Positions 390 through 63,627 of a stretch of 64,000 nucleotides of DNA are shown in pieces (position 1 is the stretch's first letter; every line of letters begins with the position of its first letter). A program made the position numbers and the translations under genes. This DNA comes from Callorhinchus milii (lineage: Eukaryota), in NCBI RefSeq assembly GCF_018977255.1, contig NW_024704755.1, forward strand, positions 6,882,001 to 6,946,000. The letters run 5' to 3'. The notes under the pieces are model-generated. The model saw nothing but the letters and a program-made list of their open reading frames with translations. It was not told the DNA's origin and ran no database searches.

Positions 390-522
390 GATGGCCAACC
401 TTAGCTATGTCAAGAATTTTAGGTTTTGCAGTGCAGTAAAAGATGAGTTGGGATATTGTCTAACTTCCTTCGAAGCGGCAGTGGAATATATTCACCAAGG
501 CAACCTAAAGTTTGGACAGCCA
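390..522 (+). CDS. ANKRD27: ANKRD27 exon, end of VPS9 domain
   Basis: tacag|G ATG GCC...CAG CCA|gtaag; MANLSYVKNFRFCSAVKDELGYCLTSFEAAVEYIHQGNLKFGQP. Confidence 0.93.
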
Positions 523-3500
523 GTAAGAAATCCTTTGTCTACAATTTTTTTTATTTCTGTTTCTTAACGTATGAGGTAGTTGGCCAATAAGCTGGAGGTT
601 AATGACCGCAAACTTGAATTGTTAGTGATAAACACTCTCGAGGTCATTCCTGTTGGTTTTTAATAGATCTTGTATCATATTTTCTGTAACATAAAATGAT
701 CTAATGTTTGTGTCGTCCTCTCTCAGGTTCAGATTGTAGCAGAGATGGATTTCATATTTATTTGCCATGATTTTTTTTTAAAAATGAACATCAATAACAT
801 TGCCATGTATCCCAGTGTAAATGGGGTGGCGGGGGAAAATATATACATTGTACATGCGTTAGTTGTGTTGGCCTGGCATCAATTTGCAGGTACTTATGAT
901 GAGGATTATTAATTTTACATAATATTAACTACGTGCACTTTACATCAATCCATGACATAAGCTTATTTTATTTCTTGGCTGATATCCAAAGGTTATTAAG
1001 TTCACCCCAAAGGTCCAAATAGAAACTCATCACCAAAGATGTTTGCAGATATTGGTTCAAACGACCATTTACATTTGTCTTGCATATGAAACACCTGCTG
1101 TGTGCTGACAGCAGGTTATCGAGGCAATAAGGCCATGTTCGTGCTATACAACCATCTGCTCATAAGGCTTCTTGGTGACATTTTCTTTTATGCTTTGGAA
1201 GCATAGTCAAGCTGTGGCTTCATGCAAAATTTAGGTGGGAGTGAAAGGATAAAGTGCAGGAGTATTTGTCTATTCTGAAATACCTGCCTCTGTTAAATTA
1301 ATAAAATGTACATATGAATCTTAATTTTGGGCATTCAGTTAGTAGGTGATATATTGCTTGAACCCATCACCCAAACACTGCACAGAGTGGTTCTAACTCA
1401 ATTGGCAGAGGTCTACATTTGCACTTTGAGAAAAAATTATAATGTGGAAGATTGAGAGGCAGGAACTCAATCTCCCAATGTAACAGCCTGATTTCAATGC
1501 AGACTTCATTTTCATTGTTACCAGTGGGTTAAAATGTTGAGACCTCCTGTGATCTCACTTGAGTTCAGATTGTGGTGTGCAAGGCGTCTTGAGCAACTTT
1601 GCTTTTTGCTCTTAAAGTTGCTCTCTGCAACACAGTATTGTGTAAGTGAACATAAATCGATGGCAAATGTTTGGTAGTATTTTGCTCGTTTTCTCAGTAA
1701 TTTTGTCAAATGTTATAAATGGTGGAACTGTTTTTCTGATTGGTTTGCTTCCTATGTTAATAGGGTTCTGGTGACTTGAATGACAAAGTCTTTTTTAGAC
1801 AGAGGATGAATTTACTGTCTCAGCTGTCCACCGCTCCCATTGATTTCTTATTTGAGGTAAACCTGGATTGCTTATGTGTATCTGTTCTTACTGCAGTCTT
1901 AAACAAATCAATTCAATCTGGTAATGGTCTGAGTGGCTGGATTCTTAGATTCATTCTAGAGTGTCATTTCTAGGGGCTGACTTGTGAAACTAGTAAATCT
2001 TGAAATGATTAGATGCACAATTGCTAATAAGACACAGCTGCATTGAAAAAAAAACTTTTGAAGGTGATTTGAAAATGTTCATTGAAAAGTCACTCTTTCG
2101 TGTTGAATCTTTTAATGTCTGCTAAACAGAACTAATGCCTTAATATGAATTTAGACCCCTTTTATTCGCCATGACGATGAGTTCTTTCAGGTTATCAGAA
2201 GCTGAACAAAGGAACTTTGTCAATTGATGCAATTTTAATTGCTTATTTCTTATAAGACTGGACTTCAACTTGATTATGACTGCAAGCTCCTTTCTTTGGT
2301 GGTACACAGGAAAGGGTTATAATACAAAAGTCAGTATCATTTGTAATTTTGTGACAATGTGCTTTCCAGCAGGTTTCCAGGCAGAAAAGAACCTGGGAAT
2401 TGTATAATTGGCTTTCTGTCCTCTCAGTTAATGCTTTGCTGGGGTGTCTGTCATGGTCATGTGTGCAGATACTCCTAATGTGCAGCTGTGCAGAGACCTA
2501 TTAAAATGTGACCTGTGGTTCTGGTGTTGCCATACCCATGATTCGCTGCCCCGTGAGTTCTTAATCTCAACTGGGTCATGGTGGGGAGAGGAGAGGGAGA
2601 AGCCGTATGAAGCAGAGGTCAGACAGTTAACCTTAACAGCAGGAGGCAGAGCAAACTGGGGAAGTCATCTTGTATACTTCCTACTACCCAGACTAGCCGA
2701 GGTCAGAGCATGTTGATTTATGGATGCCCCCAAGCATGGTTGTATTACATTTTGGGTGGGGAGAGAAGAGAAGGGAGGATGTATAAAAAGTCTTGGTAGT
2801 AAATCTTTCTTGCTCTCCCCACCCCATGGCTGATTTTGTGGTTGTATTTTGACAGCATATCGCAGCTGGTAATCGGGCAGAAGTGGAAGCATTGTTGAGT
2901 CAAGGTGAAAATGTTGAGGACCACGTGCAGAAAATGTGCCATCCGCTCTGCTTCTGTGACAACTGTGAGAAGCTGGTGTCAGGGTAAGCTGACAATTGGT
3001 TTGAAAGGTGCTGCTTGATGTTAATCAAAAAAGTACGTCTGACTGTGAAAAGGTAATGGAGATAGTCCTCCATACATTAGCTATTGAATTTAGAGATGTG
3101 TTGGCAGAGCTTTCACACGTCTATTATGTCGATGACAACGTAACTTGTACGTCCATCTTTCTTTAACTATCAAATTTGTGTGATTTTTTAAAAATAAAAT
3201 AAAAGTACCCAATATCAACATCAAGAACATGGTAACTTTTTTTTAAATTGAAGAATAACCATAGATGGGAGAGAAAATTTGTTGAGGGGTGTATTGGCTG
3301 CATAAATATTGCTACAGGTGACTAAATTTAGTAGTAGATTTGAGTCGATGCAACTTCTAGGTAAAGGCCTTTTTTTAAAAAAAAAATTGTTTAAGTGAGA
3401 TGAATTCAAAAATAGAGTGAATGTACTGTCTCAGAAGAGTTAAGTGTTCCAGGTCGTTGTGTGTGCTAACTTCAGGGTACACGGTTAATCCACTGTACAA

Positions 3501-6500
3501 TATATTCTGCAAAGCATTTTGAGACGTTTTGATAAGACTCCATATCAAATGCAAGGATTATTATTATTAAGATTGAAACCAGTGGAAGTTGGTTAACTAT
3601 ACACACAACCCAGAGACTTTAAATATCTGCATGCTTACTCTAAACTTCAGAATTGTGAGGATAAATTCATTGCATTTTAAGCAACTGTAACTAATTCAGA
3701 ATGTCATTTTTTTAAACTCCCATTTCTTAATGCTTTTATTTTATCGTAGGAGGATGAATGACCCATCTATAGTCACTCCATTTTCCAGAGATGATCGGGG
3801 CTACACACCATTGCACGTGGCTTCTCTCTGCGGTAAGTTGTATTTGCGTGCCGAAGTTTTTAAACAGTAAATTATGCACTAAATTACAAGACAGTCACAT
3901 TCTTTGCTGAAGTGGGTGGGGAAAAAAAAATCCATTCATTGATGTAAATGTTTGAATATTCCACGATTTTACAGTTGTAGATTTTCTTATTGTTTTATCT
4001 AAACTGACTATTTCATCCACAAGGCCAAGCAACGTTAATTGACCTGTTGATATCCAAAGGAGGAACAGTTAATGCTATAGACTATCATGGATTCACCCCG
4101 CTCCATCTCTCCTGTCAGAAAGGATATCAAAATGTGACAGTGAGTGAAACAGTCCAACAATTTTACAAGATGCCTGAAGAATCAATTACAATATTAGTCT
4201 TTCTGCTTTCAAACGGGTACATCGTCTGTGTAATGATGACCCATGCTCTCACTTGGAGTCTTTTCATGTTTTGTGAGGATTAATTGGGTATACAGCTACT
4301 GTGTTTTGATGTGGTTCAGTAAAATAATGTCTGGCATGATGACTCCAATTTATATTGCACATCAAAGAAAATTTCAGAGTTCAGATGATAAAATAAACAG
4401 CTTAACTTGTTTTGCAACTTGACATTTATCTCTCTTTCTTCCCCACCCACCCCCTCCAGTTGTTGCTTCTCCACTACAGTGCCAGTTCTGAAGTTCAAGA
4501 TAATAATGGCAATACTCCACTTCATTTGGCTTGCATGTATGGCCATGAAGATGTAAGTTATTTTAATACAAATTCAATGGCAGAATAATAAATGCACATT
4601 AGTAATTTTTGTTAAACTTTCATGTTTTCCCTTTCGCCTCTGGGGGTAAAATGCATTAGGATTTGAGCAAGCACTTGTTATGAGGAAGAGGCCAAGTAAA
4701 ATAGTAATGCTAAATATTAATTCTGAATTATTAGCTTTTTTTTTTTAGCTGTGATTTCTCTTGTTTAAAAAAGAATTCTTTTAAGTATTAACAGAAGATT
4801 TAGGGAAGCCTAAATGATCAAGGTAAATGGATGTCAGTGAAGGTTGCTGCAGTCTTTTTGTTTCTTGTTGCATTTTAATATTAAATAATGGATTTGGGTT
4901 GATTAACCATAAATACTCTCGTGTGGCATTTTTTTTAACTTGATTACGGTATTAATTTAACCATTACTTTTTTGTTTGCAGTGTGTCAAGGCTCTGGTTT
5001 ATTATGATTTAAATGCCTGTAGGTTAAACCTCACAAATGACAAAGGTGATTCACCTCTTCACATTGCAGCTCGATGGGGATATGACGGGATAATTGAGGT
5101 TTTACTGGAAAATGGAGCAAGTAACGAAATTCAGAACAAAATGAAAGAAACTCCATTACAATGTGCACTCAATTCTAAGGTCAGTTTGCATGTTAAGGCA
5201 GTTTGCTCTGTGATTGGAAAAATGTCTTTCAAGATCCCCTGCAGTTTTAAGAGGGAAGAAAGGGACGTTAATAAGTATTTGTTAGTTCATTCTTGCATGT
5301 TAGTATACGTAATTGAGCAGAAACTGCAAAAGCTCAGCTGAATTTAATATGATTTGGATGTGAAAATGTTACTAGAGCATTAAACTCAAGTACCAGTTAA
5401 TTTGCTGATACTATTTTTGCATACAAATTCAATGTTTTTTGGGGAGTTTTAAGTTGTAATGTTCTTTACAACCAAGACTTGCTTCAGTAAATTCTATCAG
5501 TAAAAATGTTTTGCATTTTGATTGTCTTTTCAAAGATTCTTCTTTGTCTTGCTTTTTTTTAAAAGAAAATCCTTTCTCACTTTGTGGAAACAATTAACCT
5601 GGTTTAATGTCTTATCCAAAAGATGGCACCTCTGATAATACAGCAGCCCCCCCTCCCCCAGCACTCTACTGGAGTGCAATAAATGGTTGCTTGCTGAATA
5701 ATGCATTTATTTCATCCTGTGACCATTCACATAGTAAAAGATGAGCTAATATCTCTGACATGACATTGTCCTTATATTTGATATGAATTGTCACAACTAC
5801 CTCATATCAAACACAAGGTGAGGAGAAATCCCACATAGGGGAGGTGAGGGGAAGTTTTTTTTACACAGCCAGTTGTTCGGATCTGGAATGCATTGCCTGA
5901 AAGGGTGGTGGAAGCCAATTCGATAACAACTTTTAAGAGAGAAGTAGATAATGATTTGGGGAGGACATGTTTGCAGGGCTATGGGGAGAGAGCGGGGGAG
6001 TGGGATTGAATTGAATAGCTCCTTTTAAAGAGCTGGCACAGTCACGATGGGCCGAATGGCCTCCTTCTGTGCTGTATAATTCTATGATTCTATAATGCCT
6101 CCAGTTGATCCTGAACTCAGTGGTGAAAGCTGATGTCATCTGATGCTCATGGTTGATGTCGATAAAGAGGTTAATCCTATACTTGACAAACTTGGACCAA
6201 AAGTATTTTAAAAATAGATTTTGATTCGCTATATAGTGTCACCTCATGTGTTTGAGATTAAATTGTATTTTTGGGAAGGCATGAGATTATGTTGTATTTT
6301 TGGAAGGTATTAGTGTTTTTTTGACGCAGTGCTTTTTGTTTCTAATTAATAGTTACTCGCTTTCTGTGCATCAAACGAGTAATTAATTTACATCAGAGGA
6401 GAAGGAGAACTTTTTCAATTTATGTAAAAATGTTAATACAGGGAAAGTTCATTAAGACTTTGGGCCCAATGCTGACTGAGAAAGTGGCTGTTTTCCGGGA

Positions 6501-9500
6501 TGTTGGGTCCCTCCTGAGGTTGCCTTGAAGCACCGTTGATGTCACTTTCTTTGTGCATTTTGCTTAGGCATTATATCTGCATTATAAATTCAGCAGTATT
6601 GTTGCCAGTTAACAAAGTGTTGTGCAAATATAATGTTCTTCTCAAATCCTTTCAGATATTAGACTTGCTGGAAATCACCCACATTGGTAACGATAGACGA
6701 CAGAGTGTTCCCGAGGTAATTTTCATTATTTTGTCCTAATCAAACTGACTCTTTCAGGGTCTTAAACAACAATGGGATCGAGCTGCAATGGTGTGGTATT
6801 GATTCTGTCTGTTAATACTTCATCAGAACATCAGGAAGCAACTTTTTTTATTGATCAGACTACTATTTCTCCCCAGCAGTCTCTGCAGCACCAAAGCCAC
6901 TAAGGTGGCCAAACTATATAATGTTGAGTGGCACTTTAAGAGAAGTTAAACAAATGATCTTATTTGTTAGCCTGGTTTACCATAACTTAGCCTTCCTTAA
7001 TCATCGCTATTTTGGGGGACATAAGGGGGGTGGGGAGGCGAACAAAGGTTTTGCTAACAATTATTTTGCTTAGCTGTAGTGTAAGTGTAATATTGTGTAT
7101 CCTGAACTGTTGCTTTATTTGTAGTCCTCTATCAGATCTCAATCTTCAACAGACGCCGGCAGTCAGAAGTCATCTGTTTCCAGTCTATCCTCTACGTCAG
7201 TTGAGGTGAGGCACGAGGAAGATAAGGGCCGATACAAAGAGGTAAAAGGCTGGTTTCACTCCACTGCTGTTTCTACATAATCCAGAATCTCTCCTGGAGT
7301 ACTAGCACATCTGAATCACTTGAGGCAATAAAAGATATCAACAAATATCACTCAAAACTGATCAAAATTTCCAAGAATATATATTAACAAAAAAAGGATT
7401 TAAGTAACTTTCATTCTTGAAGTGGTCGGAGGATTCTAAGCATAGTATTATGGAGGGGGGACACGGGGCTTTAAAAGGGGGAAATGAACAATTGAGCAAA
7501 GCATCATTCCAGTGGTAAGCAAACCGTAAAATAGAGCCTGGATTATAATGCAGTAATTAGGGTTCCATAAGATCCCAATGAAAGCAAGTAACAACATACG
7601 CTCGCTAGTAAGAGGTTCAGCATTCGCTGTGCAGAAAGATACTAATAATCCTTGCAGTTGATATAACTCCTTATCACGTTTTCGAGACATCTCAAAGCGC
7701 TTTATAGTGACTGTATATTTTGTGGACGAAACGCGGAAGCACACAGCAGCGTCCACAAGCAGGTAGTTGGCTTCATTCCCGCATTAACAACCCTGGCTGG
7801 TGTGCAGGTAACCAATGTGACTGACGTCGGGGTCACTTTTAAACTTGTTGAAACATTTTTTTTAAAAAAACAAGCTTTTAAACTGCCTTCACATTGCTGC
7901 AGTTTAAATGCCTCCTACACTACACACCACTTGCCTGAATCGAGTGGAATTTCTGAAAATGTCGAGATAAAAGCTACATCGAATTGCTGCAAAGTATTAA
8001 CTGCAGCATAAGGAACTCTTGATAATCCTAGCTAGCAACAATCCAATGTCATGAGGCAAAAAGGAAAATGGTTCAAGAACTAAATATTTTAAACTATTTT
8101 GGGTTATTGGTGAGTAAAAATAGTAATGAAAGTTGCCAAATGCCTTGATTCAAGTTGTTTTCATTTTAGAAATTGATGTTTTTTAATAGGTCCTTAACCA
8201 GTTAACTCATTAATGTTTTGCGTAATCCTTGTCTAACAAGATTAGAGTGTTGTTGAAGGGCATGGCCTAAAGCCAGATAATGCAGTTTTATTTCAACTTG
8301 TTAATCCAAATAAATTTAGCTTTTTGTCATTTCATTGCAGGTAGAAAAATTACTGCGCGCTGTTGCTGATGGAGATTTAGAGATGGTGAGTGCAATGCCA
8401 TCAAACATAACTGAAAATATTGGGGGGGGCATTTGTACAGGAAGCATGTGAATCCAATTTTGGGGTCCTCTTTGTACCTGAGGTTTGCTATCCATATTGT
8501 TAATCTGTGCTCCTTATTTTCAGGTGATTAGCACATTAACGTGGTGACATCGCAGTCTTCTGACATTAGTGCTTGTGTGGCTAAATTGCCAGTGTGTAAA
8601 TACTGAGCATCGTTTGTCTCTGGTGTGAAAAGAGGCTTAAAGGACATTATCAAGAGTGCTATCTAAAGTAAATTATTTTGGTGGGAAGATATGGGTGCCA
8701 TAAGTGTTCTCCCTCAGTAATCCTCTATCTGTCTGCTTATGGTACAGCCAGATCAGATGGTATGAAGGAGCCTCTAATTTTTATTGAATCTGCTGAAAGC
8801 AGACTGGGAATTATTGTGACTGCGAGTGACTGAATATACGGTGTTCATAACTTTTAATCCCATTTGTAAAAGTGTTTTTGTAATGTATGATTTTTTTTTT
8901 GCTGCTCTCAGTCATTGCTAGTTAAATATGAATATCGCCTATATCAAAAATCATTTCAGTTTTCCTTAGATCTGCTTTCAGTCTTCCTTTCTTTACCTGA
9001 TAAATGAATTGCATTTTATATTCCTTTTCTCTCCCATGGGCTGCCCTTTTAACGTGTTTTTTTTTAAAAAAAAGACTTTCGTTAAATTAAGACCATTTGA
9101 CACATTAAATCTATTCCTTCAACAGAAAGTCTACATGTTTCCCTACCATAGACTATTAGAGTTCCTGAGAGAAAGCTTGGCGCAAATAACAGTCTATCCA
9201 TTGCCACATCTCAATTATTCACTACTTGTTGCACTCTACAGATGACAATTCCCCTCTTCCAGTTTTACCATTGCATCCCATGAAATAACGGGCTATCACT
9301 GTCTGTGCCTATCTATGTGAGCTTCCATCCTTTTCCCATCCAGATTTTCTACCAGCTCCATTTTGAAGATTTAATCACTAATTTTGCTAACTAGTTTTGC
9401 TAAGAGTTTGTTCCGTGAATCTGTGGGAATCAGTTTCTTTTCATTTCCAGTTTCACTTGAGGTTTATTAATGTCAAGGTCCTTGACCTTGAATAACTGAA

Positions 9501-12500
9501 TCGGTTTTCTCTTCCCTTCCCTCTTAATCTAATTTTTCTTTCTATATGGAAAAGCCACTCAACAAATCTCTCATCATTTAGACTAAATCCTAAAATAATC
9601 CTGGTTGTCCTTTTTTGGGAAGCTTTTCCAAAATTGACACACAATATTTTGAATATAACTTGTTCCAATTTAGTCAAATACTTTGAGATGAAAAGCTGAG
9701 ATGTCTTTGGGTTTTCTTGCCTTAAGCTTCATATTAACTGGAACTTTCGGTGACTGATCAATAGTCCTTGTGCAGCTTTGGTAATGGACAGCCTGTATGC
9801 ATTGCACGCATCAATTTTTAATGCACGTAACCGTAACCTCACATTCATTCATTCGTTGCCCATCGCATTATTGTTTTTTTCCCTTAGTCTAGTCATATTA
9901 GCGTGGATGGTATTCAAAAATGTAATATAAAACCCTCCTCCGATATCCAGACCTTTTTCTGTAATGAATAGATCAAAAATAAAATATTCTTGAGCAGGTT
10001 AATTTGGGTTCCCAAGACCTTCTGTTGTAAACTGATTACAAATAAATATGGAAGCTAATGATAGGTTATTGGTCAAATGATCAATCTACATCGAGAATTG
10101 GAAGGAAATGGAGTTATCTGACATCAGTTGCTTAAAACCCTTATTAACATTTTCATAATCTTAGAAATCCACTCAAATCCACTTTAAGGGGATTTGAACA
10201 GAGGAGAGTGATCACTGATTAAGTTGTATATTGTCGTTTATAATTTAGTTTACTGTCATTCAGCAGTCTGACTGCCCCTAGCACAGTGAGCTTTCATTTG
10301 TCAGTAGGAACCAAGATAAATCTATATTAGGAAGCTGGAAAGTGAGGACTTCGGGATATTATTATTATTATTAATGTAGACACTACAGATTTATCTAATT
10401 TTATTAAAACTGTTGAAAATCAATTGAATATTCCCTTCTGTTCACAAGCTAGGAAGCTTGACCATGCTGTATTTTATATTTAGGTACGTTATCTATTAGA
10501 GTGGATGGATGACGAGCCAGAGGAAGAGGATGAACCTGTGTTGAAATCTGAATTCTGTCACCCTTTATGCCAATGTCCAAAGTGTGAACCTGCTCAAAAG
10601 GTATATTCTCCTTTCTGTAGACTACAGCCTCGCTCTCACTTGAGCTGTGTTTCAAATGACATTTAGTGCAATCTCCTGTTTGCCATCAAGGTTGCTGAAT
10701 GGTTTATGTGTTCTGCATAGAAACTTTCCAGTGTTACTGTAAATGGACTGAGTGTGAATGCTACCAATCAGGATGGGTTTACACCGCTACATGTGGCTGC
10801 TTTACATGGACACTTTGACCTTGTCTCACTTCTGCTGCGGCACGGTGCCAGTGTCAACACAAAGAATTTCCACAATTCAACTGCACTCCACCTAATTTGC
10901 CAGCACAATGAACCACAGGTAAGACTTAGCAACAGCGAGTGGCCTGCATTAATATCTTCCTATTCTCTTCCCCCTCTCCCACCAAAATAAAACATTAACC
11001 CCAGTGCCTTCGCCTTGCTTCCTCCCTTTCCTCCTTCAAGGCCGGTCTCAAAACCTTTCTCTTTGACCGTGGCTTCAGCTCCCCTCTCGACTCTATCCCC
11101 TCCTCGCTCCCTCCCTTCCCTCCCCTCACCCTGACCATGTCCCCCCTGCTCGGGCCCTGACCCAACTGTCCAGCGCCTTGGGACGTCCTCCCGACGTGAA
11201 GGCGCGCTATAAATGAAATCTTGTTGTTGTTAACCTTGTGCAGTTTACATCTTTTTTCCTCCATGTATCTGCATTTTCACAGCTATTTAGTGGAACAATC
11301 AATTTCTGTTCTGTCCTCCTTCCTCCAGCTGGGCTATATTTATATCTGTTTGCTTGAATAGTTATATTGTAAAAAAAAAAGCTGAGCTATATTGTAAAAT
11401 TAGATTTTGGTTGCTAATTGTCATTTTGGAAAATGCAAATGTTTCAGAGATCAAGGGGCTGCTTTACATTCAGAGATCTTTTATGTATAATGTTTATACA
11501 TAATACATTGTGAAATAACATTACATTATTTTGATATTGCCTTTTCTGCTCTTGGAAGACAGTCCCAGTCGATCAACATCCAAATCTATTGCTTGATACT
11601 TTGCTATTCATTCATTTCCTAAGCTCACTTGGCATACTTCTCTCGTGCATATCAAATGGAATAGTGTTTCAAGTGCAGAGCTTTGAATGAAGATGGCTGA
11701 TTATATATCTTCAAAATGGGTCTTAATAATTTGGAGAATAAGAATCCATCTAATCGACAAATAATGTATTCTGTCATAGTTGTGTGTTCGGAGTATTCAT
11801 AAGGAGTGCCACCAAATTAAATTAATGCATTGGTATGAAATTAACATACCTAAAAAAATTGTTTTCATTTTTGGTTTGTATTCATTTCAGGAAATTATGG
11901 ATTTTCTGTGGTTCTGAATTACTATTGAATATTGATTTAATCTTCTGGTCATATTATAAAAAGACAAAACACACCTTTCTGTGCTGTAAGATTCTATGAT
12001 TCTGTTCCATTTCTTACAAAATCCAGTCGCATTGAAACTGCAAGAAATAGTTTTGAAATAGTTGGAATACTGTTTCTGGTTTGGTACAATAAACGTAGAA
12101 CTTTTTTTCTTAAGTGCATTTTTTTAAATTAAACTCCATTTTATGTTCTTCAAATAAATAAGTGATACTCTATTCGTTCTGCTTTTGAAACAGATAGTGA
12201 AATACTTTCTGGATTATAATGCAAAATTGAATAAGAAAGATTCCTATGGTAATACTCCACTGTTGCACGCCTGTTTACGTGGCCATCTAGAAGTTGCTGA
12301 GCTGCTGCTAGAGGTAGGAGCATTTATTGTGTGAAATGTTTGTAAAGTTAAATTTATCTCTCTTAGTCTTGTTAGAATCAGACAATTTAGGCCATTATTT
12401 CTTCTGTGACTAGTTTGTATGTCCTGCAATATGTTGGGCTTGGGAAAGGAATCCTGTCCAAGCCCATATATGAAGCGTAGTGTGTAAGTGACAAAATCAA

Positions 12501-15500
12501 CAATAGTCAAATGTAATAGCCAAACACGTTATTAGCTCCATGAATGATTTACCATTTGCTTATTTGGGGGTCGGTTCCTCAGCATGGCGCGTCCATCAAC
12601 CTCACAAACAACCAAGGGAATACAGCCCTGCACGAGGCCGTAAAAGGAAAGCACGAAACTCTGGTGAATCTGCTCTTGACTTACGGGGGTTCAATCCACG
12701 TGCGAAATAAACAACAGTGTACACCGATAGACTGCGCTGAGGAAGTCTGCGGAAAGGTAAGAGGTTGAGACCAGCATGTGGCTTCATATCAGAACCTGAT
12801 TTTTTGTTTTTTTAAAAAAAAATGACTCGGTGACTCCTGGCTGGATAAAGGCAAACGTAAAGCTCTTGCTATTTTCCAAAGTGGTTGCATCCTGAGCCAT
12901 TCTTCCATGTACCTTCTGGCAGCGTTCAAGGTGAACAGGAATCCCTTCCTGACTAAGAAGGAAGTAGTTCAGAATATTTGTGGGGGCTGGCTGTATCGTA
13001 ACTTTTGTTTTTACTGAATTTAATAAGCTTCTTGCTTCTTAATACATTTTGTACTTAACTTTGTCACAGGATACTGTTTTGTGTGGTCACAACAATATAA
13101 ACACGTCATTTTTTTTACCCAAAGTGCAGAACAATGTGAATTTATGATCCATATTTATGGCTCAACCTAAAGGAAAATACATTTTAAAAAGTCAGATTTC
13201 ATTCTACTAGTAATTTTATGATGATGGAAAGCTTTTTTTTAAAAAAGAACTATTTGTGCAACTGGAATGTCCTGGCTTCACTGAACAGTTTTTGGCTTGA
13301 CACTTGCTTCTTGAAAATTGCACTCTTCAGTAAATTAAACTGGTTGGAATAGAGTAAATTCAAGATTGATTAATGCAAATAACAGTCAGTACTTGAAAGC
13401 ATAGCTTTTAGCTGGGGCACACAGCCTTATAAACATGCTATCCACTTACCGTGGAAATGACACCACCATTCCATAATTTAAATTAAATCATTTCCTGAGC
13501 ACCGCTGAAAATGTCATAGTGTGATAAATGGTGGATGCAGTTTCATTACCTCTACAGATGAGAACGGGTATGACTCATTATTTACTCCAGCCATAATGAT
13601 AACTGGTGATTTAAAAATATTGCCTATTTTTAGGACACTGAGATTTTTAAAATCACAATCCCTTGGTTCTACCTGTTTAAATGTTAGTTGCATCTGATTT
13701 TTGCAAATTTTGATCTTATAGTTTCATAGTTATTGTGCTATCAAATATGAGTAGTGGAGTGCTAAGAAGTTTTGGTGCATATCCAATTGTTTTCAGTAGT
13801 CAGTAATTTGACTAATATCCCTGCTCCCCACCCCACCCCCATTGATATTTGAAAGCTTAATAAACTATTTTAATGACACTAAGGAATGTGGAGCATCACT
13901 TATTTTGTGGGTTAACATTGAATTATCTACTACAGCAACAACAAAATTACATTTATAGAGCGCCTTTCACCTCGGGAGGACGACCGAAGGCACTGATTTA
14001 TCTATCTGATTTTCGCCCACAAAATTTACAGTCAATTCACTTTACAATATATTCTGTGAAGCGCTTTGAGACGTCTAGAAGACGTGAAAAGTGCTATTAT
14101 CAAATGCAAGGATTATTCTTATTATTATCAGTTTTCCTCGTGGTATTGTTTTGCAACTCTATAAAGTTTTTGGCTTTCTTTTCTGTAAATGAGTTGCTTG
14201 GATTGCCAGTTGTCATTTTATTTTTGGTTTTATATAGATCCGTTTTTTGTGACCAGATTATTTTGGCCACCTGTTATGGCAGGAAATAATTGGCTGTGGT
14301 TCACCTACTGGTCTTTTTTATTTAGACTGCGCTGCGGGTTCCATAATTTGAATATTTTATAGAATGTTTATTTTACATTTCGACGGAGGTTTACAAATGT
14401 ATGTTATCCCAGGGTTGCTGAATTTTGGTTTATGAGAAGTAATGTAGTCTGATACAGATACCCAGGAATAATCATAAAACATTTAAACAGAGGCAAGTCT
14501 ATAATGATTTCTGGGGCTTTGTGTTTATTATATTCAGAATATGGAGCTTTTGAAGACTTTGCAGAGAGTATCTGCTCATGTGACTGAGATGGATGGTATT
14601 CCCCGACTCAACACTGATCGGAAGAATCTCCCTGAAAATGTCAAAAAGAAACGTAAGATATTACTGAAACATGAATTGAACAAGTGCATAAAAATATGAC
14701 ACTTTTGTTACAGAATTGCACAGAACTGACTAGAGAGGTGCAATCTAGGGTAAAGCAGTTTTTATTCATCGTCATGAATAAAAACTGCTTTACCCTAGAT
14801 TGAAACTATAGGATAGTTTCTAATTCCCCAATTTATTGAATGAATTTTCTTCTGTGGAAAAAATGAAGCCACTATATGTATTTTAATAGGTGTTCAAATC
14901 CTGTTGATAGTCATAAGTTATTATGTAATTCCAATGTAGAAGTAGAACTAAATCCACTGACTGCTCTGTTTTAATCCAGTCTCTGTATGATTTTATGCCA
15001 CAAATGTTGAGGCCAGTGCTTTGAAGATTAATGCCATCATCCGAATGCTTTTCATTTGTTAGTTTGCCTGAAATTAATCCTCCCAAATCATTTCTTTTGT
15101 CGTTTAGCTGATATTTTTGTGAAGCAGACAGAAGCAGTAGATGAACTGACCAGAGGAAGAACGCAGCTCGTGAACTCTATTAATAAATTTAATAAGTAAG
15201 TAACTACTCTTGCAGAAGACATGCAATTTTTTAAAATCAATTTGGCTACTTTTCACTAATACGGTAAATATTTGTTCAGAGAATGTTTTGTACATTTTGC
15301 AAATAGTCGAGTGGAAATTGCTTCTGCTTGAGCCAGGATTCTAACTCTGAAATTCCCACTCTTGTCCTAATAGCATGGTCATTTCTGCCTCTTGTCAGTT
15401 TGGTGTATCTCCCCCTCCCTTTATTCCTTGAGCCCTTCACTGAAAGAAAGGCAGGACAACCTGAGTATCCACATTATAATATTCCTAATAAAAATAAAGC

Positions 15501-16646
15501 TATCAGAGGGAAGTTTTATGTCGAACTATCTGTGATATATTTTCACAACTTTGTTGCCCCTCTTATCCCAATGGGTCAGAAGAAACTTCCACAAAAAATG
15601 TAAACAAACCTCAAAATCCAGATAATCTGATGCTTTTCTTTAACTGTGGTATAATCAATGTTTTAGATGTTTAGTAACGAGAGCTGCTCAATTAAGAAAC
15701 TGCACACACAACTATATCTAGATACTTTTTTATGAAAATCAAAGCCATAACCTTTTTTTAAAGGAATTGATAATGATTAACATTTGACTGAAGATTACAT
15801 ATATACAGGCTGTTATTCTAGCTACATTCTTGTATTTAGATCCAAGCATTTAAGGAAGACAATGACCAGAGATAATAGCATGCCGAAATTTGATGAACAC
15901 TTAATTCATCAGGTAAGAAAATTGATTGATCTTGTAGTCATGAAAATGTGTAAAATACAAGAGTATGATGAGCATATTTTACAAACTGAACATTGCAAAT
16001 ATCCATGAGTAACTGTTTTATGTGTTAAATATTGCATCTGAATGAGGATGGATTTTTTTTGTCTTGTTAAGATGTCTTATTCCAATCGGTCATCCTGTTC
16101 TACAATTGGAAATTACCACACATTCAAAATACAGTACTGTGTTCGAATCACACAAAGAATTCATGGAACTATCGGCATTATCTTTTCGGCGGTGTTTTAT
16201 TAACAAAAAGAATAAACTGCTGTGAATAAGAGATTACTGAAAGCATCTAATTTTACAATTCACGAAGATGGTCTCTCTCTCTCGCTCTGTTTTGTGTGTA
16301 TTGTACTTTCACAGTATTTATACGATGTGTTCTCATCTGGTCCCAACAGTTAGCAATCAAGACATTTGATAAAGGGAAATTGAAACGAGTCAAAACAGTG
16401 GATCATAGCGGACCATCACTTTTCCATTCTGAAGTTGACGGTGAGAATGAGAAAGAAATGCTGGTGTCTCCAAACAGCAGGACAGAGTCTGGGTATCTGG
16501 GTGCACGGCGCACAGTTTCATTGAGCTATTTACCCAATGAATTGAACGATGTAAACAGCAACACAGAATTCGTAGGGAATTGCAGACTTTCTTCAAAGGT
16601 TTCACCCGATTTAGGGGACGCAAGGGTTGGCAACCACAGAAAATAA
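390..16646 (+). CDS. ANKRD27: ANKRD27 / VARP (VPS9 domain and ankyrin repeat protein), 3' part, 18 coding exons; 5' exons lie upstream of the window
   Basis: Exons 390-522, 1764-1856, 2856-2983, 3750-3832, 4024-4139, 4460-4552, 4982-5179, 6656-6715, 7125-7241, 8341-8385, 10484-10600, 10721-10918, 12194-12313, 12583-12756, 14538-14652, 15108-15195, 15840-15912, 16350-16646. All are AG/GT bounded and splice in phase. They encode the VPS9 C-terminus (MANLSYVKNFRF..DELGYCLTSFEAAVEYI), two CHPLCxCxxC Zn motifs and two ankyrin blocks. Confidence 0.96.
1764..1856 (+). CDS. ANKRD27: ANKRD27 exon
   Basis: tag|GGT...TTT GAG|gtaaa; GSGDLNDKVFFRQRMNLLSQLSTAPIDFLFE. Confidence 0.9.
2856..2983 (+). CDS. 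ANKRD27: ANKRD27 exon, first Zn-fingernail motif
   Basis: cag|CAT...TCA GG|gtaag; HIAAGNRAEVEALLSQGENVEDHVQKMCHPLCFCDNCEKLVSG. Confidence 0.93.
3480..3568 (+). mobile_element. SINE tail fragment
   Basis: AAAGCATTTTGAGACG...ATATCAAATGCAAGG(ATT)n. Confidence 0.65.
3750..3832 (+). CDS. ANKRD27: ANKRD27 exon, ankyrin repeat
   Basis: tag|G AGG ATG...TGC G|gtaag; RMNDPSIVTPFSRDDRGYTPLHVASLC. Confidence 0.92.
4024..4139 (+). CDS. ANKRD27: ANKRD27 exon, ankyrin repeat
   Basis: aag|GC CAA...GTG ACA|gtgag; QATLIDLLISKGGTVNAIDYHGFTPLHLSCQKGYQNVT. Confidence 0.92.
4460..4552 (+). CDS. ANKRD27: ANKRD27 exon, ankyrin repeat
   Basis: cag|TTG...GAA GAT|gtaag; LLLLHYSASSEVQDNNGNTPLHLACMYGHED. Confidence 0.92.
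4982..5179 (+). CDS. ANKRD27: ANKRD27 exon, ankyrin repeat
   Basis: cag|TGT GTC...TCT AAG|gtcag; CVKALVYYD...GDSPLHIAARWGYDGIIEVLLENGA...ETPLQCALNSK. Confidence 0.93.
5810..6093 (+). mobile_element. CR1 LINE 3' end
   Basis: TTTTACACAG...TGGAATGCATTGCCTGAAAGGGTGGTGGAAGC...GATGGGCCGAATGGCCTCCTTCTGTGCTGT...ATTCTATGATTCTAT tail. Confidence 0.85.
6656..6715 (+). CDS. ANKRD27: ANKRD27 exon
   Basis: cag|ATA TTA...CCC GAG|gtaat; ILDLLEITHIGNDRRQSVPE. Confidence 0.85.
7125..7241 (+). CDS. ANKRD27: ANKRD27 exon, Ser-rich linker
   Basis: tag|TCC...AAA GAG|gtaaa; SSIRSQSSTDAGSQKSSVSSLSSTSVEVRHEEDKGRYKE. Confidence 0.83.
7640..7760 (-). mobile_element. SINE 3' fragment in ANKRD27 intron
   Basis: AATAATCCTTGCAGTTGATATA...CTCAAAGCGCTT...GAAACGCGG. 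Confidence 0.7.
8341..8385 (+). CDS. ANKRD27: ANKRD27 exon
   Basis: cag|GTA GAA...GAG ATG|gtgag; VEKLLRAVADGDLEM. Confidence 0.92.
10484..10600 (+). CDS. ANKRD27: ANKRD27 exon, second Zn-fingernail motif
   Basis: tag|GTA CGT...CAA AAG|gtata; VRYLLEWMDDEPEEEDEPVLKSEFCHPLCQCPKCEPAQK. Confidence 0.93.
10721..10918 (+). CDS. ANKRD27: ANKRD27 exon, ankyrin repeats
   Basis: tag|AAA CTT...CCA CAG|gtaag; ...[31 protein letters not shown]...TALHLICQHNEPQ. Confidence 0.93.
11003..11231 (+). mobile_element. L2 LINE 3' end
   Basis: TCCTTCAAGGCCGGTCTCAAAACCTTTCTCTTT (SFKAGLKTFLF) then CAGCGCCTTGGGACGTCCTCCCGACGTGAAGGCGCGCTATAAATG and (TTG)n tail. Confidence 0.75.
12194..12313 (+). CDS. ANKRD27: ANKRD27 exon, ankyrin repeat
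   Basis: cag|ATA GTG...CTA GAG|gtagg; IVKYFLDYNAKLNKKDSYGNTPLLHACLRGHLEVAELLLE. Confidence 0.92.
12583..12756 (+). CDS. ANKRD27: ANKRD27 exon, last ankyrin repeat (alternative in-frame donor at 12744 possible)
   Basis: cag|CAT GGC...GGA AAG|gtaag; HGASINLTNNQGNTALHEAVKGKHETLVNLLLTYGG...TPIDCAEE(VCGK). Confidence 0.88.
13933..14128. mobile_element. L2-like tail (-) adjoining SINE 3' fragment (+)
   Basis: CAACAAC...ATTTATAGAGCGCCTTTCAC then TTTCGCCCACAAAA...GTGAAGCGCTTTGAGACG...CAAATGCAAGGATT. Confidence 0.7.
14538..14652 (+). CDS. ANKRD27: ANKRD27 exon, start of C-terminal tail
   Basis: cag|AAT ATG...AAA C|gtaag; NMELLKTLQRVSAHVTEMDGIPRLNTDRKNLPENVKKK. Confidence 0.82.
14741..14802. repeat. 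Perfect 29 bp inverted repeat with 4 nt spacer
   Basis: CAATCTAGGGTAAAGCAGTTTTTATTCAT-cgtc-ATGAATAAAAACTGCTTTACCCTAGATTG. Confidence 0.95.
15108..15195 (+). CDS. ANKRD27: ANKRD27 exon, C-terminal tail (helix of WH2-like motif 1)
   Basis: pyrimidine tract, tag|CT GAT...AAT AA|gtaag; phases 1/2 fit both neighbours; DIFVKQTEAVDELTRGRTQLVNSINKFN. Confidence 0.75.
15840..15912 (+). CDS. ANKRD27: ANKRD27 exon, C-terminal tail
   Basis: tag|A TCC AAG...CAT CAG|gtaag; SKHLRKTMTRDNSMPKFDEHLIHQ. Confidence 0.78.
16350..16646 (+). CDS. ANKRD27: ANKRD27 terminal coding exon
   Basis: cag|TTA GCA ATC...TAA; LAIKTFDKGKLKRVKTVDHSGPSLFHSE...VGNHRK*; followed by an AT-rich 3' UTR. Confidence 0.78.
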   Translation, partial: LAIKTFDKGKLKRVKTVDHSGPSLFHSEVDGENEKEMLVSPNSRTESGYLGARRTVSLSYLPNELNDVNSNTEFVGNCRLSSKVSPDLGDARVGNHRK

Positions 16647-17258
16647 ATTTCACTGCAATTTAGGGGACAAGAAATGTGTGGAAACAAAACACTTTCCTGG
16701 AAACAAAAAGGTAGGACTTGTGCAGGTGCTGTTCAAGAAAGGACTTTATCTGTCAATATATTTGTTCTTCTGTCAGTCTTGTAAGACTACAACTATGAAG
16801 CAAAAAGCACCGTTAAATTGAAAAAAAATAGCACTTCCACTGTGAGGTTACAAAGGGGAAAAGCACTTCCACTGTTAATGTATTACAATATTTTTTTGCA
16901 CTTGACTATTAGGGAATTGATGCTTTGTCCACGTTAGCTGCTGCATTGTACGCCATAAACATGCAATCTGTATTATGTGTGTGTATAATATATATATATA
17001 TGAAAAATATCACTGCTAGGCTGTTTGGGAATTTAGATTTTAATGCCAAGATTCTAAAATAGAGACCATTCAAATCTTATGAAAATGTATTTTTTAAATG
17101 CTGGTCTACCTTTCTATAAAGCACATACTAAACTTGTGTTTCCATTGATGTCTGTATTTTTCAAGAGACCTTTCTATAACAATGTAATAATGTGTGCCTT
17201 ATTTAATTTGTAAATGTGCTTAAGGAATGTTACTCTTCGTGTAAACAAATGACTAAAT

Positions 17259-17272
17259 ATTAAAACAATAAA
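17259..17272 (+). terminator. Probable ANKRD27 polyadenylation signal
   Basis: ATTAAA (17259) and AATAAA (17267) followed by GT-rich TTGGGTTTTTTGG, ~620 nt after the stop codon. Confidence 0.6.
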
Positions 17273-17462
17273 ACTTGGGTTTTTTGGAAAAGTTGTTTCA
17301 AACATTTCTTCAGAGTTTAAATGACTTCTTGGTGGCATATTAAATTGCTGTGAAGATCCATCCTAGCATTTCAATAGATTTGCTGAGGTTGACTCCATAT
17401 TGACTTGAAATTTCATTAATAATCAAAATGCTAATCGATGCTACTTCATTGTGCACCTATTT

Positions 17463-19870: not shown

Positions 19871-20138
19871 GGCAGAAGGTGCGGTCGAAGAGATAAGTCT
19901 TGAGACAAGTCTTTGAAATCAGAGGGGAATGAGGTGAAGCAAAAGTGTTTCCGGGGCTGTGGCGGACGGTCGAGACCCCGAGAGACAGACGCCCTCTGAC
20001 GGTGGAGTTGAACGGGGGCCGAGCTCTGAGGGTCTGTGTCCACCCGCGAGGCCCGAACCCCGGGTCCCGCTTCCCATCAGCGGCTTCTCCTTCCTCCGGT
20101 CTCCCCCCCCACACCACCCCCCCCCCGGCGGCCCTTAC

Positions 20139-20204
20139 CCCGCGTTGAGCCTGAAGCTCAGACAACCTCTGGCGCCGGATCGCCTCCAACTCCTCGTCCG
20201 CCAT
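20139..20204 (-). CDS. PDCD5: PDCD5 exon 1 (opposite strand to exons 2-6)
   Basis: Minus strand ATG GCG GAC GAG GAG TTG...CGC GGG|gtaag; MADEELEAIRRQRLSELQAQRG, 66 nt, phase 0, inside a CpG island. Confidence 0.93.
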
Positions 20205-48339: not shown

Positions 48340-49800
48340 ACGTATGCGCTGAATGTGCCCAACGCTCAGCATCACTCACTCACTCACTCACTCACCATCA
48401 CTCGCTCTGAGAGCGCAGCGACGAGCGCGCGTTACAGCAATCGCTCAGCTTCGCAAACAAACCCGTCCCACAGCCCCCGACCCCGACCAACGAGTTCCCC
48501 CCCCACCCCCCACCCCCCCCACCCCCACTTCCCCCCCACCCTCAAAAAAAACAACAACAACAGCAACAACAGCCCCCAACGAAGGCAGAGGGGAAGGAGA
48601 CGCTCAGCGCTATGCACTTGCTGTGGCGGTGGGATCTCGCGTGTTGTATGGCTTTGCTGACCCCGGGGCTGGACAGCCTCGACCCCCTTTGCCCGGGGTC
48701 CAGCGGGTCCGCCCGCGCCCGCACCCGCACCCGCGCCCACGGCAGCGACCGGGACCGGGACCGGGGGGACCGGGACCGACCCGCGTGGTATTACGGGCAC
48801 CTGAGCGAGAACCTGCCCCGGGGGTCCAGGGTGCGGGGAGCCACCATCCCCCTGAGTCGGCTCGGGCTGCCGGGGAGGTGCGCGGGGACACCGGGCGGCG
48901 GCGGCGGCGGCGGCGGCGGGTGGCAACTCGCGTTGATGGGCGAAGGGCATCCCGACTTCCAGCTGTATTCCCACCACCGGCGCGGACACGTCTCCCTGAG
49001 GAGCACCAGAGCCCTGGACAGGGAGGAGACCCCGGGGTACCGGCTGCAGCTCGGGGTGCGGTGCGTCCGGGACTGCCCGGTACCGGCGGCGGCGGCGGCG
49101 GTGTGGGCGGTGGCCGCCGAGGTCCGAGTGGCCGTGTTGGACTCCGACGACCGCCGTCCGGCATTCGCGGCCGCGGGGGTCCGGCCGCTGGCGCTCAGGT
49201 CGGTGCTTTACCGGGCGGCGGCCGCTGACCCCGACCCCGACCGGAACGGGCGCCCGGTGTACCGACCCGAGCCGCGCGCCTCGCCCTCCTCTGTGGTGCC
49301 CAAGACCGGGGACGCGGTGCTGCCCGAGTCGCTGCTGGACCCGAGGAGGAGGAGGAGGAGGAGGAGGAGGAGGAAGAAGAGGAGGGTGAGGGAGAGGGAT
49401 AAGCTGAGGCTGGACGTGGTGGTCAGCGACCGCGGTTCCCCGGGGCTGACCAGCCGCCCGTTGAGGCTGGAGGTCCGGTTGCACTCCCCGGTGTTGCCCC
49501 CGACCCCGACCCCGACCCCCGACCCGGTGCTGAGGGCCCCTCGGGAGCCCCGGTCGCTGCTGCCCCGGGAGTCCCGGCGCATCACCGTGTCGGAGGACGC
49601 CGCCGTGGGCTCGGTCATCCTGACCCTGTCCCCCGGCCGGAGGTTCCCCGCCGCCCGGTACGAGCTGGTCTACCCCGAGCACTCGCCGCTCAGCCTGGAC
49701 CGGGAGAGCGGGCGGCTGAGCATCAGCGGCGGCCTGGACCGGGAGAGCCGACCCGACATCCGCCTGACCGTCAAGATCCACGAGAAACAAGGTACCGGAG
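48340..49800. promoter_or_regulatory. CpG island over cadherin 5' UTR and exon 1
   Basis: Very high GC and CpG density against AT-rich flanks. Confidence 0.8.
48612..49791 (+). CDS. Cadherin exon 1: signal peptide plus divergent N-terminal EC repeats
   Basis: 1180 nt GC-rich open frame; MHLLWRWDLACCMALLTPG...LDREETPGYRL...VLDSDDRRPAF...AAADPDPDRNG...VSEDAAVGSVI...LDRES; donor CAA G|gtacc. Confidence 0.85.
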
Positions 49801-51016
49801 TGAGCCCTCCACCTCCACTCCACCTCCACTCCCTACTCCCTCTCCACTCACTCACTCACTCACTCACTCACTCACTCACTCACTCACTCACTCACTCACT
49901 CACTCACTCACTCACTCCTCTCCACACACTCACTCNNNNNNNNNNNNNNNNNNNNNNNNNNNNNNNNNNNNNNNNNNNNNNNNNNNNNNNNNNNNNNNNN
50001 NNNNNNNNNNNNNNNNNNNNNNNNNNNNNNNNNNNNNNNNNNNNNNNNNNNNNNNNNNNNNNNNNNNNNNNTCNNNNNNNNNNNNNNNNNNNNNNNNNNN
50101 NNNNNNNNNNNNNNNNNNNNNNNNNNNNNNNNNNNNNNNNNNNNNNNNNNNNNNNNNNNNNNNNNNNNNNNNNNNNNNNNNNNNNNNNNNNNNNNNNNNN
50201 NNNNNNNNNNNNNNNNNNNNNNNNNNNNNNNNNNNNNNNNNNNNNNNNNNNNNNNNNNNNNNNNNNNNNNNNNNNNNNNNNNNNNNNNNNNNNNNNNNNN
50301 NNNNNNNNNNNNNNNNNNNNNNNNNNNNNNNNNNNNNNNNNNNNNNNNNNNNNNNNNNNNNNNNNNNNNNNNNNNNNNNNNNNNNNNNNNNNNNNNNNNN
50401 NNNNNNNNNNNNNNNNNNNNNNNNNNNNNNNNNNNNNNNNNNNNNNNNNNNNNNNNNNNNNNNNNNNNNNNNNNNNNNNNNNNNNNNNNNNNNNNNNNNN
50501 NNNNNNNNNNNNNNNNNNNNNNNNNNNNNNNNNNNNNNNNNNNNNNNNNNNNNNNNNNNNNNNNNNNNNNNNNNCAATAACACTGATACCCTATCAATAA
50601 AACCAATACTGTCTCAACAACACTGATACTGTATCAATGAAACGGATACTATACCATTAAAACTGACACTGTATAAAAACGGATACTTTATCAATAAAAC
50701 CGACACCGCCGTATCAATAAAGCTGTTACTGCATCAAAACATTGATAACTGTATCCACTTGCGTGACACACAACATCCATCCTTCTCTCAACAGAGATGT
50801 TCCGACCCCAACCCGGATATTCCCTTCCTAATTAATAAAAAAAATCATTCATTGATCCAGACTTTCCGTTACAGTGGGTTTATCCGTGGTTTCCTTTCTA
50901 ACCTTGGCTTTCATCTTAACAACTGTTTTGTGTTAGTTTTAAAAGCCAAGGAACAATGTCACTTGGATTATCGAGGCATTGCGTCTGTTCGATTGCCCTA
51001 TTAATCTGAGTTACCC

Positions 51017-51047
<31 letters not shown>

Positions 51048-63595: not shown

Positions 63596-63627
63596 GTAAG
63601 CATAGACATCTTCAATAATAATAAATA

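Follow-up and report, generated by a model that had tools for sequence, protein, structure and literature searches.

The window, the whole 64,000-nucleotide stretch that was analysed (Callorhinchus milii contig NW_024704755.1, positions 6,882,001 to 6,946,000 of the forward strand), opens on the 3' part of the elephant shark gene for VARP (ANKRD27). Eighteen coding exons at 390..16646 (+) form a single open frame with AG/GT ends, and the 5' start of the gene lies upstream of the window. Translation and Pfam identify the end of a VPS9 domain, two CHPLCxCxxC Zn-fingernails and two ankyrin stacks, the set by which we place the gene in ANKRD27/VARP, followed by a tail of 190 residues. The last exon matches UniRef V9K9D9 (P0001), the 1,079-residue C. 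milii ANKRD27, at 98% over that exon; an initial search with the tail gave two proteins among 39 candidates. The disordered tail carries, at residues 945-1004, a module of two repeats 31 residues apart that resemble WH2 and beta-thymosin motifs. The features are as follows.

390..16646, + strand: 3' part of ANKRD27/VARP, 18 coding exons (translation, Pfam)
14538..14652, + strand: exon closing the second ankyrin stack and opening the disordered tail, residues 890-927 (contig joint)
15108..15195, + strand: tail exon with helix 1 (transcript joints)
15158..15190, + strand: repeat 1 helix R945-F955 (L948, I952, F955), predicted in the actin barbed-end cleft (alignment, models)
15840..15912, + strand: 73-nt exon with LRKT, the long-WH2 extension and the start of helix 2 (transcript joints)
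15850..15861, + strand: LRKT (961-964), repeat 1 motif of the LKKT type, predicted to lie on actin 23-25 (complex model)
15865..15885, + strand: T-R-D-x-S-x-P (966-972), in register with the WIP extension and doubling as an R-x-x-S-x-P site (profile alignment)
15901..16367, + strand: repeat 2 helix L978-F987, interrupted by the intron 15913-16349 (AlphaFold2, complex model)
16350-16646, + strand: last coding exon, joined at 15912/16350 (stop codon 16644-16646)
16365-16385, + strand: F-D-K-x-x-L-K (987-993), thymosin-type linker and repeat 2 motif (alignment, profiles)
16365..16418, + strand: repeat 2 with its less conserved extension, to S1004 (alignment)
16419..17300, + strand: weakly conserved tail end, stop codon and 3' UTR within transcript contigs (contigs, alignment)

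Tail to tail with ANKRD27, positions 20138-20203 (-) hold the first exon of a gene that resembles PDCD5, which would be the gene order of human as well; the 22-residue piece from this exon had no Pfam match. Further along, 48411-63600 (+) holds a cadherin gene of several exons, the first of them GC-rich, with Pfam Cadherin in 5 of 6 tested pieces.

The tail is spliced as the preliminary description had proposed from the letters. Its tail peptide agrees with the 18-exon translation and is included in the tail of V9K9D9, and both joints on which that peptide depends, 15195/15840 and 15912/16350, occur in transcript contigs (5/7 and 6/7 RNA-like runs); the joint 14652/15108 occurs in 7/7. The contigs come from three studies, in which 8 of 15 listed runs were examined (seven RNA-like, one DNA-like); RNA status is a software guess, no run being recorded as RNA, and two joints are supported by fewer than 31 letters in one run each. 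Tail joints were absent from the one DNA-like run (X11, 0/1), whose contigs cover the introns. An artefact of guessed splicing is thus ruled out by the joints in transcript contigs, and a processed gene copy as their source was not seen in the one DNA-like run. The same description held that exon junctions hide the motifs from a list of open reading frames; the L-K of repeat 2 is nonetheless visible in the plain ORF 16251-16646. Assembly and runs differ in single bases at window positions 15139, 16510, 16521, 16525 and 16607, leaving module residues unaffected. No exon-skipped isoforms appeared in the examined shark contigs, from which rare forms get dropped. Annotated isoforms of several species skip or truncate one or both repeats (P0005, P0033, P0038, P0064, P0075, P0083, P0119); without the 73-nt exon the reading frame changes and the protein stops after helix 1.

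Each repeat opens with an amphiphilic helix of the 9-10 residue WH2 kind, as judged from conservation and helix prediction (hydrophobic moment 0.53 for helix 1 and 0.38 for helix 2, tail mean 0.31 +/- 0.13). The LKK(T/V)-type motif follows as LRKT (961-964) in repeat 1 and as L992-K993 in repeat 2, and the long-WH2 extension is represented by D968, S970 and P972, all invariant. Position 969 is K or R in 15 of 16 rows and N in the elephant shark. The beta-thymosin linker F-D-K-x-K is exact in repeat 2 and reads F-N-K, one residue longer, in repeat 1. Repeat 2 is without the T of LKKT and its extension is badly retained in tetrapods; the shark repeat 2 has the full extension. The R-x-x-S-x-P of repeat 1 has the form of a possible 14-3-3-type site.

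The module stands out as an island of conservation. Among 30 full-length orthologues chosen from 123 for having the tail (11 cartilaginous-fish and 18 tetrapod rows), mean shark-versus-tetrapod identity is 0.64 in repeat 1 and 0.48 in repeat 2, against 0.19 and 0.09 in the flanks; by the same measure the second ankyrin stack reaches 0.58 and the VPS9 region 0.72. The 49-residue core at 945-993 has an identity of 0.646, compared with 0.136 for the remaining tail, a value reached by none of 20,000 shuffles of the tail columns. The helix hydrophobics L948, I952, F955, L978, L982, I984 and F987 have conservation of 0.83-0.94, the L and T of LRKT 0.94 and 0.83, and L992 and K993 of repeat 2 0.89 and 0.94. 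In 16 rows picked for having the module, there is no variation in the helix hydrophobics, the two L positions or D-x-S-x-P, and the elephant shark retains all 15 invariant columns. The conserved positions, as aligned, are those important in WH2 motifs, namely the helix hydrophobics, the L-basic pair and D-x-S-x-P. For repeat 1 this bears out the helix, LRKT and D-x-S-x-P singled out in the preliminary description. Its second motif, LKRV, fares only in part: the island lies far above its flanks, but R994 (0.09) and V995 (0.18) are variable. We therefore take I-x-x-F-D-K-x-x-L-K as the conserved core of repeat 2, dropping LKRV as a four-letter motif and retaining L-K alone.

Profile searches place this island among actin-binding peptides. 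A vertebrate module profile built from 16 picked rows had nine PDB matches at E<=10, seven of them WH2 or thymosin peptides; the best were thymosin b4 chimeras (E 0.0007 and 0.003) and WIP (0.006), with WIP aligning to repeat 1 and thymosin to repeat 2. An invertebrate-only profile gave the same picture, 8 of its 10 PDB matches being actin-bound WH2 or beta-thymosin peptides. Pfam WH2 (PF02205, gathering cut-off 23.1) scores 14.0 bits on the full shark protein and 23.4 bits, over two stretches and with E 4.5e-5, on a 70-residue shark cut-out, trimming of the query being a step that raises scores; the Lingula cut-out reaches 24.4 bits, and 12 of 30 full-length orthologues match at E<=1. Pfam thymosin (PF01290, gathering cut-off 24.8) stays lower throughout, at 10.1 bits full-length, 16.3 on the shark fragment and 21.6 on that of Lingula, with matches on cut-out modules in 16/16 and 7/13 rows. 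Four flanking VARP exon pieces had no Pfam match. WH2 membership is thus formally borderline by sequence score, the cut-off being passed on the cut-out module and missed on the full-length protein, and filing as a beta-thymosin was rejected, the cut-off being missed and the second half of the motif absent.

The two repeats are also alike. Scanned with a profile built from repeat 1 of invertebrates, vertebrate repeat 2 scores 5.5-26.6 bits; of 467 tiled windows, the top 25 all fall at the module, so that on profile evidence the two repeats are homologous to each other.

Comparison with known systems helps to place each half of the module. The available text of a WIP review describes WH2 as a 9-10 residue helix plus LKK(T/V), to which long forms add an Arg toward actin E93 and a small Ser, R54 and S55 in WIP (PMC7407642). 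Repeat 1 aligns with the long WH2 peptides (WIP, PDB 2a41; MIM, 2d1k; PF02205) in its helix, LKKT-type motif and T-x-D-x-S-x-P, matches WIP in register save for the shark Asn at the Arg position, and shares with them a disordered context. It differs in the eight residues that separate the Leu from the last Ile of the helix, in a thymosin-type Phe, in having no adjoining proline-rich profilin site that we could see, and in its host, a Rab GEF and retromer accessory protein. Repeat 2 reproduces exactly the I-x-x-F-D-K-x-x-L-K of the beta-thymosins (b4/b9, ciboulot; PF01290; PDB 1hj0, 3u9d, 3u9z, 4pl8), and the tandem arrangement, in which one helix closes a repeat and opens the next, recalls their multi-repeat forms; unlike these, VARP lacks both a second half of the N-P-L-P type and a separate C-terminal helix past repeat 2, scores below the Pfam cut-off, and sets its repeats of 31 residues within a 1,079-residue protein. 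By likeness, then, the module reads as a long WH2 followed by a thymosin-type repeat.

The module is old. Among the 150 best 50%-cluster representatives, 37 are VARP-like; the vertebrate-only profile matches 19 of these and not the other 18, many of which stop just past the ankyrin stack, whereas 2 of the 113 non-VARP proteins matched, at 1.5 bits at most. Both repeats occur in Lingula (66.8 bits), Babylonia, Patella, Argopecten, Elysia, oysters, Asterias and Patiria, and in Capsaspora, a single-celled relative of animals (37.3 bits). Another Lingula protein, of 102 residues (P0274), falls in one cluster with the Lingula VARP and had no notable Pfam match. Repeat 1 alone occurs in amphioxus, an Acanthaster model, the nemertean Tubulanus and, weakly, Hydra; the VARPs of lamprey, hagfish, Phallusia and the wasp Orussus had no profile match, and no fungal, amoebozoan or choanoflagellate VARP was among the proteins retrieved. 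A shark-specific innovation is ruled out by the two-repeat molluscs, brachiopod, starfish and Capsaspora. The available part of PMC7539009 dates the double fingernail-ankyrin layout to the holozoan ancestor, Capsaspora included, so that the tail module is likely as old; its sequence distribution indicates a pre-animal origin.

Its later history includes erosion in several lineages. In a census of 111 labelled proteins, using patterns drawn up after the alignments had been inspected, counting isoforms of one species, and excluding unnamed proteins and models that skip or stop short of the tail, the cores of repeats 1 and 2 were found in 12 and 11 of 12 cartilaginous-fish proteins, 37 and 37 of 37 from birds, 5 and 5 of 5 from turtles and crocodilians, 9 and 5 of 9 from squamates, and 2 and 2 of 3 from amphibians. 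Neither core was found in 13 ray-finned fish or 11 mammalian proteins, human not among the latter. Both patterns together occurred in 0 of 11,100 shuffled tails. Profile scores are graded accordingly: 68 of 123 proteins exceed 80 bits, monotremes and marsupials reach 38-53, and placentals lie at 17-28. The decay in mammals that had been suspected from the shark sequence is thus upheld; the age of the module had been put too low, since it reaches back to Capsaspora, and ray-finned fish are eroded too. Given its absence from many lineages, the module is dispensable. Mammalian VARP is an orthologue, with the VPS9 domain, two Zn-fingernails and two ankyrin stacks in common; unlike the two-repeat shark tail, the examined mammalian tails keep only R-x-x-S-x-P and a degenerate helix, the former in 11/11 proteins without actin cores. 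Seven decayed tails (a teleost, a sturgeon, a frog and four mammals) had no Pfam match. In teleosts and sturgeons (P0021, P0027, P0062, P0110, P0061, P0113) the L-[RK]-R-x-E-T of repeat 2 is retained and the helix or its Phe is gone, so some residual actin contact is possible there.

Structure prediction suggests how the repeats could engage actin. AlphaFold2 gives low confidence to the tail (902-1079), with helices at 938-957 and 976-982 and pLDDT below 50 over 902-942, 961-973 and 976-1079; with a shallow alignment of 30 rows this is an indirect sign of disorder, and the predicted setting is the intrinsically disordered one of WH2 motifs. For the complex, ESMFold2 was run without alignments on residues 936-1006 with two actins and with three controls. 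The actin (L018, 375 residues) is 98.4% identical to the shark cytoplasmic actin exons and was used since the intronless actin-like genes of the shark's own genome are too divergent; at least eight such divergent reading frames (L001-L008) occur in that genome. The complex scored 0.72 and the best control 0.00, with at least 93% of contacts shared between runs and partner pLDDT of at least 78. The pass mark is reached by 51/78 solved and 2/108 mismatched microbial pairs and by 39/65 and 2/126 eukaryotic ones, a calibration that lies outside disordered peptides.

The model sets one actin on each repeat, head to tail, in the usual WH2 pose, in keeping with the earlier suggestion that this tail may bind G-actin. 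Contacts fall in the barbed-end cleft (143-148, 167-168, 344-352), on the strand 23-32, on E93 of both copies and on subdomain 2/4 residues; I952 lies on actin 143, residues 961-966 on actin-1 23-30 and 993-999 on actin-2 24-30. Actin 199-211 and 242-246 are also contacted, with no tail residues given for these in the contact list. E334, linked to sequestering in the available text of a review (PMC8880164), is absent from the confident contacts. The pointed-face C-terminal helix of beta-thymosins has no counterpart after repeat 2, and the helix following repeat 1 is helix 2. Since WH2-actin complexes have been solved, such peptides are uncalibrated and two actins were supplied, the pass shows likeness only: the pose is a prediction, made for a module whose expression, frame, conservation, duplication and age are observed.

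We consider it very probable that the VARP tail binds actin directly. The best overall explanation, which we consider the probable one, is of two WH2/beta-thymosin-type repeats, each taking one predicted actin monomer, head to tail. Each helix would fold into the barbed-end cleft, each L-basic motif would pair with actin 23-30, and the extension is predicted to head toward the pointed end. According to the available parts of the sources, retromer holds VARP via VPS29 (PMC7539009) and Rab21, together with WASH and retromer, acts on F-actin at endosomes (PMC8265274), so that the tail likely gathers monomers at recycling tubules. From this literature we infer that VARP is anchored on retromer through its Zn-fingernails and activates Rab21; the tail would then collect monomers where WASH-Arp2/3 makes branched actin and pass them on. 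It is therefore probably a local actin-monomer buffer, or hand-off point, on retromer-coated endosomal tubules. In yeast Las17, phosphorylation inside a WH2 reduces actin affinity (PMC8102491, available text), and by this precedent S970 could be a phosphorylation switch of the putative actin binding.

Buffering, nucleation and tethering fit the present data alike, although they differ in probability. Unlikely, in our view, is that the tail holds F-actin or barbed ends and thereby positions Rab21 GEF activity, leaving polymerisation unchanged. The precedent would be Connecdenn 3/DENND1C, a Rab GEF whose C-terminal LKK-containing motif couples Rab activation to actin and, in the available text, co-sediments with F-actin without shifting the G/F ratio (PMC3248895). 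That protein has a single short F-actin motif, a DENN domain and Rab35 as its target, whereas VARP has a VPS9 domain, Rab21 as its target and two repeats of helix plus motif. In favour of such a role, invertebrate VARPs have an extra helix upstream that ends in F-E; against it, the helix is predicted to sit in the barbed-end cleft, a surface hidden within filaments, and the profile matches are all monomer-bound peptides. This extra helix, S-[IV]-x-D-L-F-x-A-F-E, lies about 10 residues before repeat 1 (P0137, P0156, P0165, P0228 and others); its vertebrate counterpart is weaker (window about 15110-15140), and it is loosely like the F-E-ending DENND1C actin motif.

Like the tandem-WH2 proteins Spire, Cobl and JMY, VARP has closely spaced repeats that are predicted to bind consecutive actins. 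By analogy the VARP repeats might align an actin dimer on the long-pitch helix, so that VARP clustered on retromer arches nucleates like Spire or Cobl. The head-to-tail pair in the model, the 31-residue spacing, the joint retention of both repeats from Capsaspora to birds and the capacity of VARP to bind two VPS29 on one arch (PMC7539009, available text) are in its favour. Yet there are two repeats only, and neither a dimerising nor a formin-binding partner is known; repeat 1 stands alone in amphioxus, a nemertean and Hydra; a thymosin-type linker with Lys suggests sequestering (PMC8880164, available part); and the two-actin pose was invited by the modelling design. We regard nucleation as improbable.

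Quite improbable is that the block is conserved for another partner, such as 14-3-3 at R-x-x-S-x-P, the WH2 likeness being incidental. Persistence of this site in all 11 mammalian proteins lacking the actin cores would fit. In two-repeat invertebrate and unicellular proteins, on the other hand, R-x-x-S-x-P is present in 2/12 and the repeat 2 core in 12/12; the D-x-S-x-P is itself the long-WH2 extension seen in WIP (R54, S55; PMC7407642, available text); and the helices, L-basic motifs and duplication would be left unexplained. The literature listed for ANKRD27 with 14-3-3 held nothing evidently about this site. That the family module binds actin and the elephant shark copy is decaying, its binding gone, is very improbable: N969 replaces the K/R of 15/16 rows and several lineages have lost the module, but 15/15 invariant columns are intact, the shark fragment passes the WH2 cut-off and its repeat 2 has the full extension.

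Returning to the monomer-binding tail, its significance lies in the host. VARP has been studied closely as a hub of endosomal recycling (retromer, Rab21, Rab32/38, VAMP7, SNX27), and the work cited here, as far as its available text goes, is on mouse and human cells, in which the module appears decayed; decay of the mammalian tails would explain why that work missed it. In line with the preliminary description, which knew of no actin-binding module annotated in VARP, none of 120 plus 20 database matches carries a precomputed WH2 or thymosin domain, and a full-text search, with most subscription papers and supplements outside its scope, found no paper pairing VARP/ANKRD27 with WH2 or thymosin. 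Actin binding by VARP is not described in the available parts of PMC8265274, PMC3279394, PMC7539009, PMC11817943 and PMC4231307; background on the topic is given in PMC3464195 and PMC9569871, likewise available in part. The motif kind is already known, and the host protein and the pattern of loss are new. VARP, a Rab21 GEF bound to retromer, thus carries a real, ancient and apparently unreported tandem module of WH2/thymosin type.

Should the tail indeed bind actin, VARP in its ancestral and most widespread form would couple retromer directly to actin, alongside WASH. A bolder scenario, rather unlikely as a whole, would make pre-animal VARP a retromer-anchored actin assembly factor, its tail nucleating or feeding filaments at the tubules of endosomes and its other domains seeing to Rab21 activation and VAMP7 capture, with independent losses in mammals, ray-finned fish, cyclostomes, tunicates and insects, mammals keeping only a phosphorylation/14-3-3-type remnant. 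The 70-residue peptide, or swaps between chicken and human tails, would offer a cheap route to actin supply on recycling tubules, and the monotreme, marsupial and placental tails show the motifs decaying in natural steps, with one sub-motif preserved.

Some 40 residues beyond repeat 2, the tails of amphibians, reptiles, birds, mammals and some teleosts carry R-R-H-[TS], presumably a basophilic kinase site, to which the shark tail has a loose match only.
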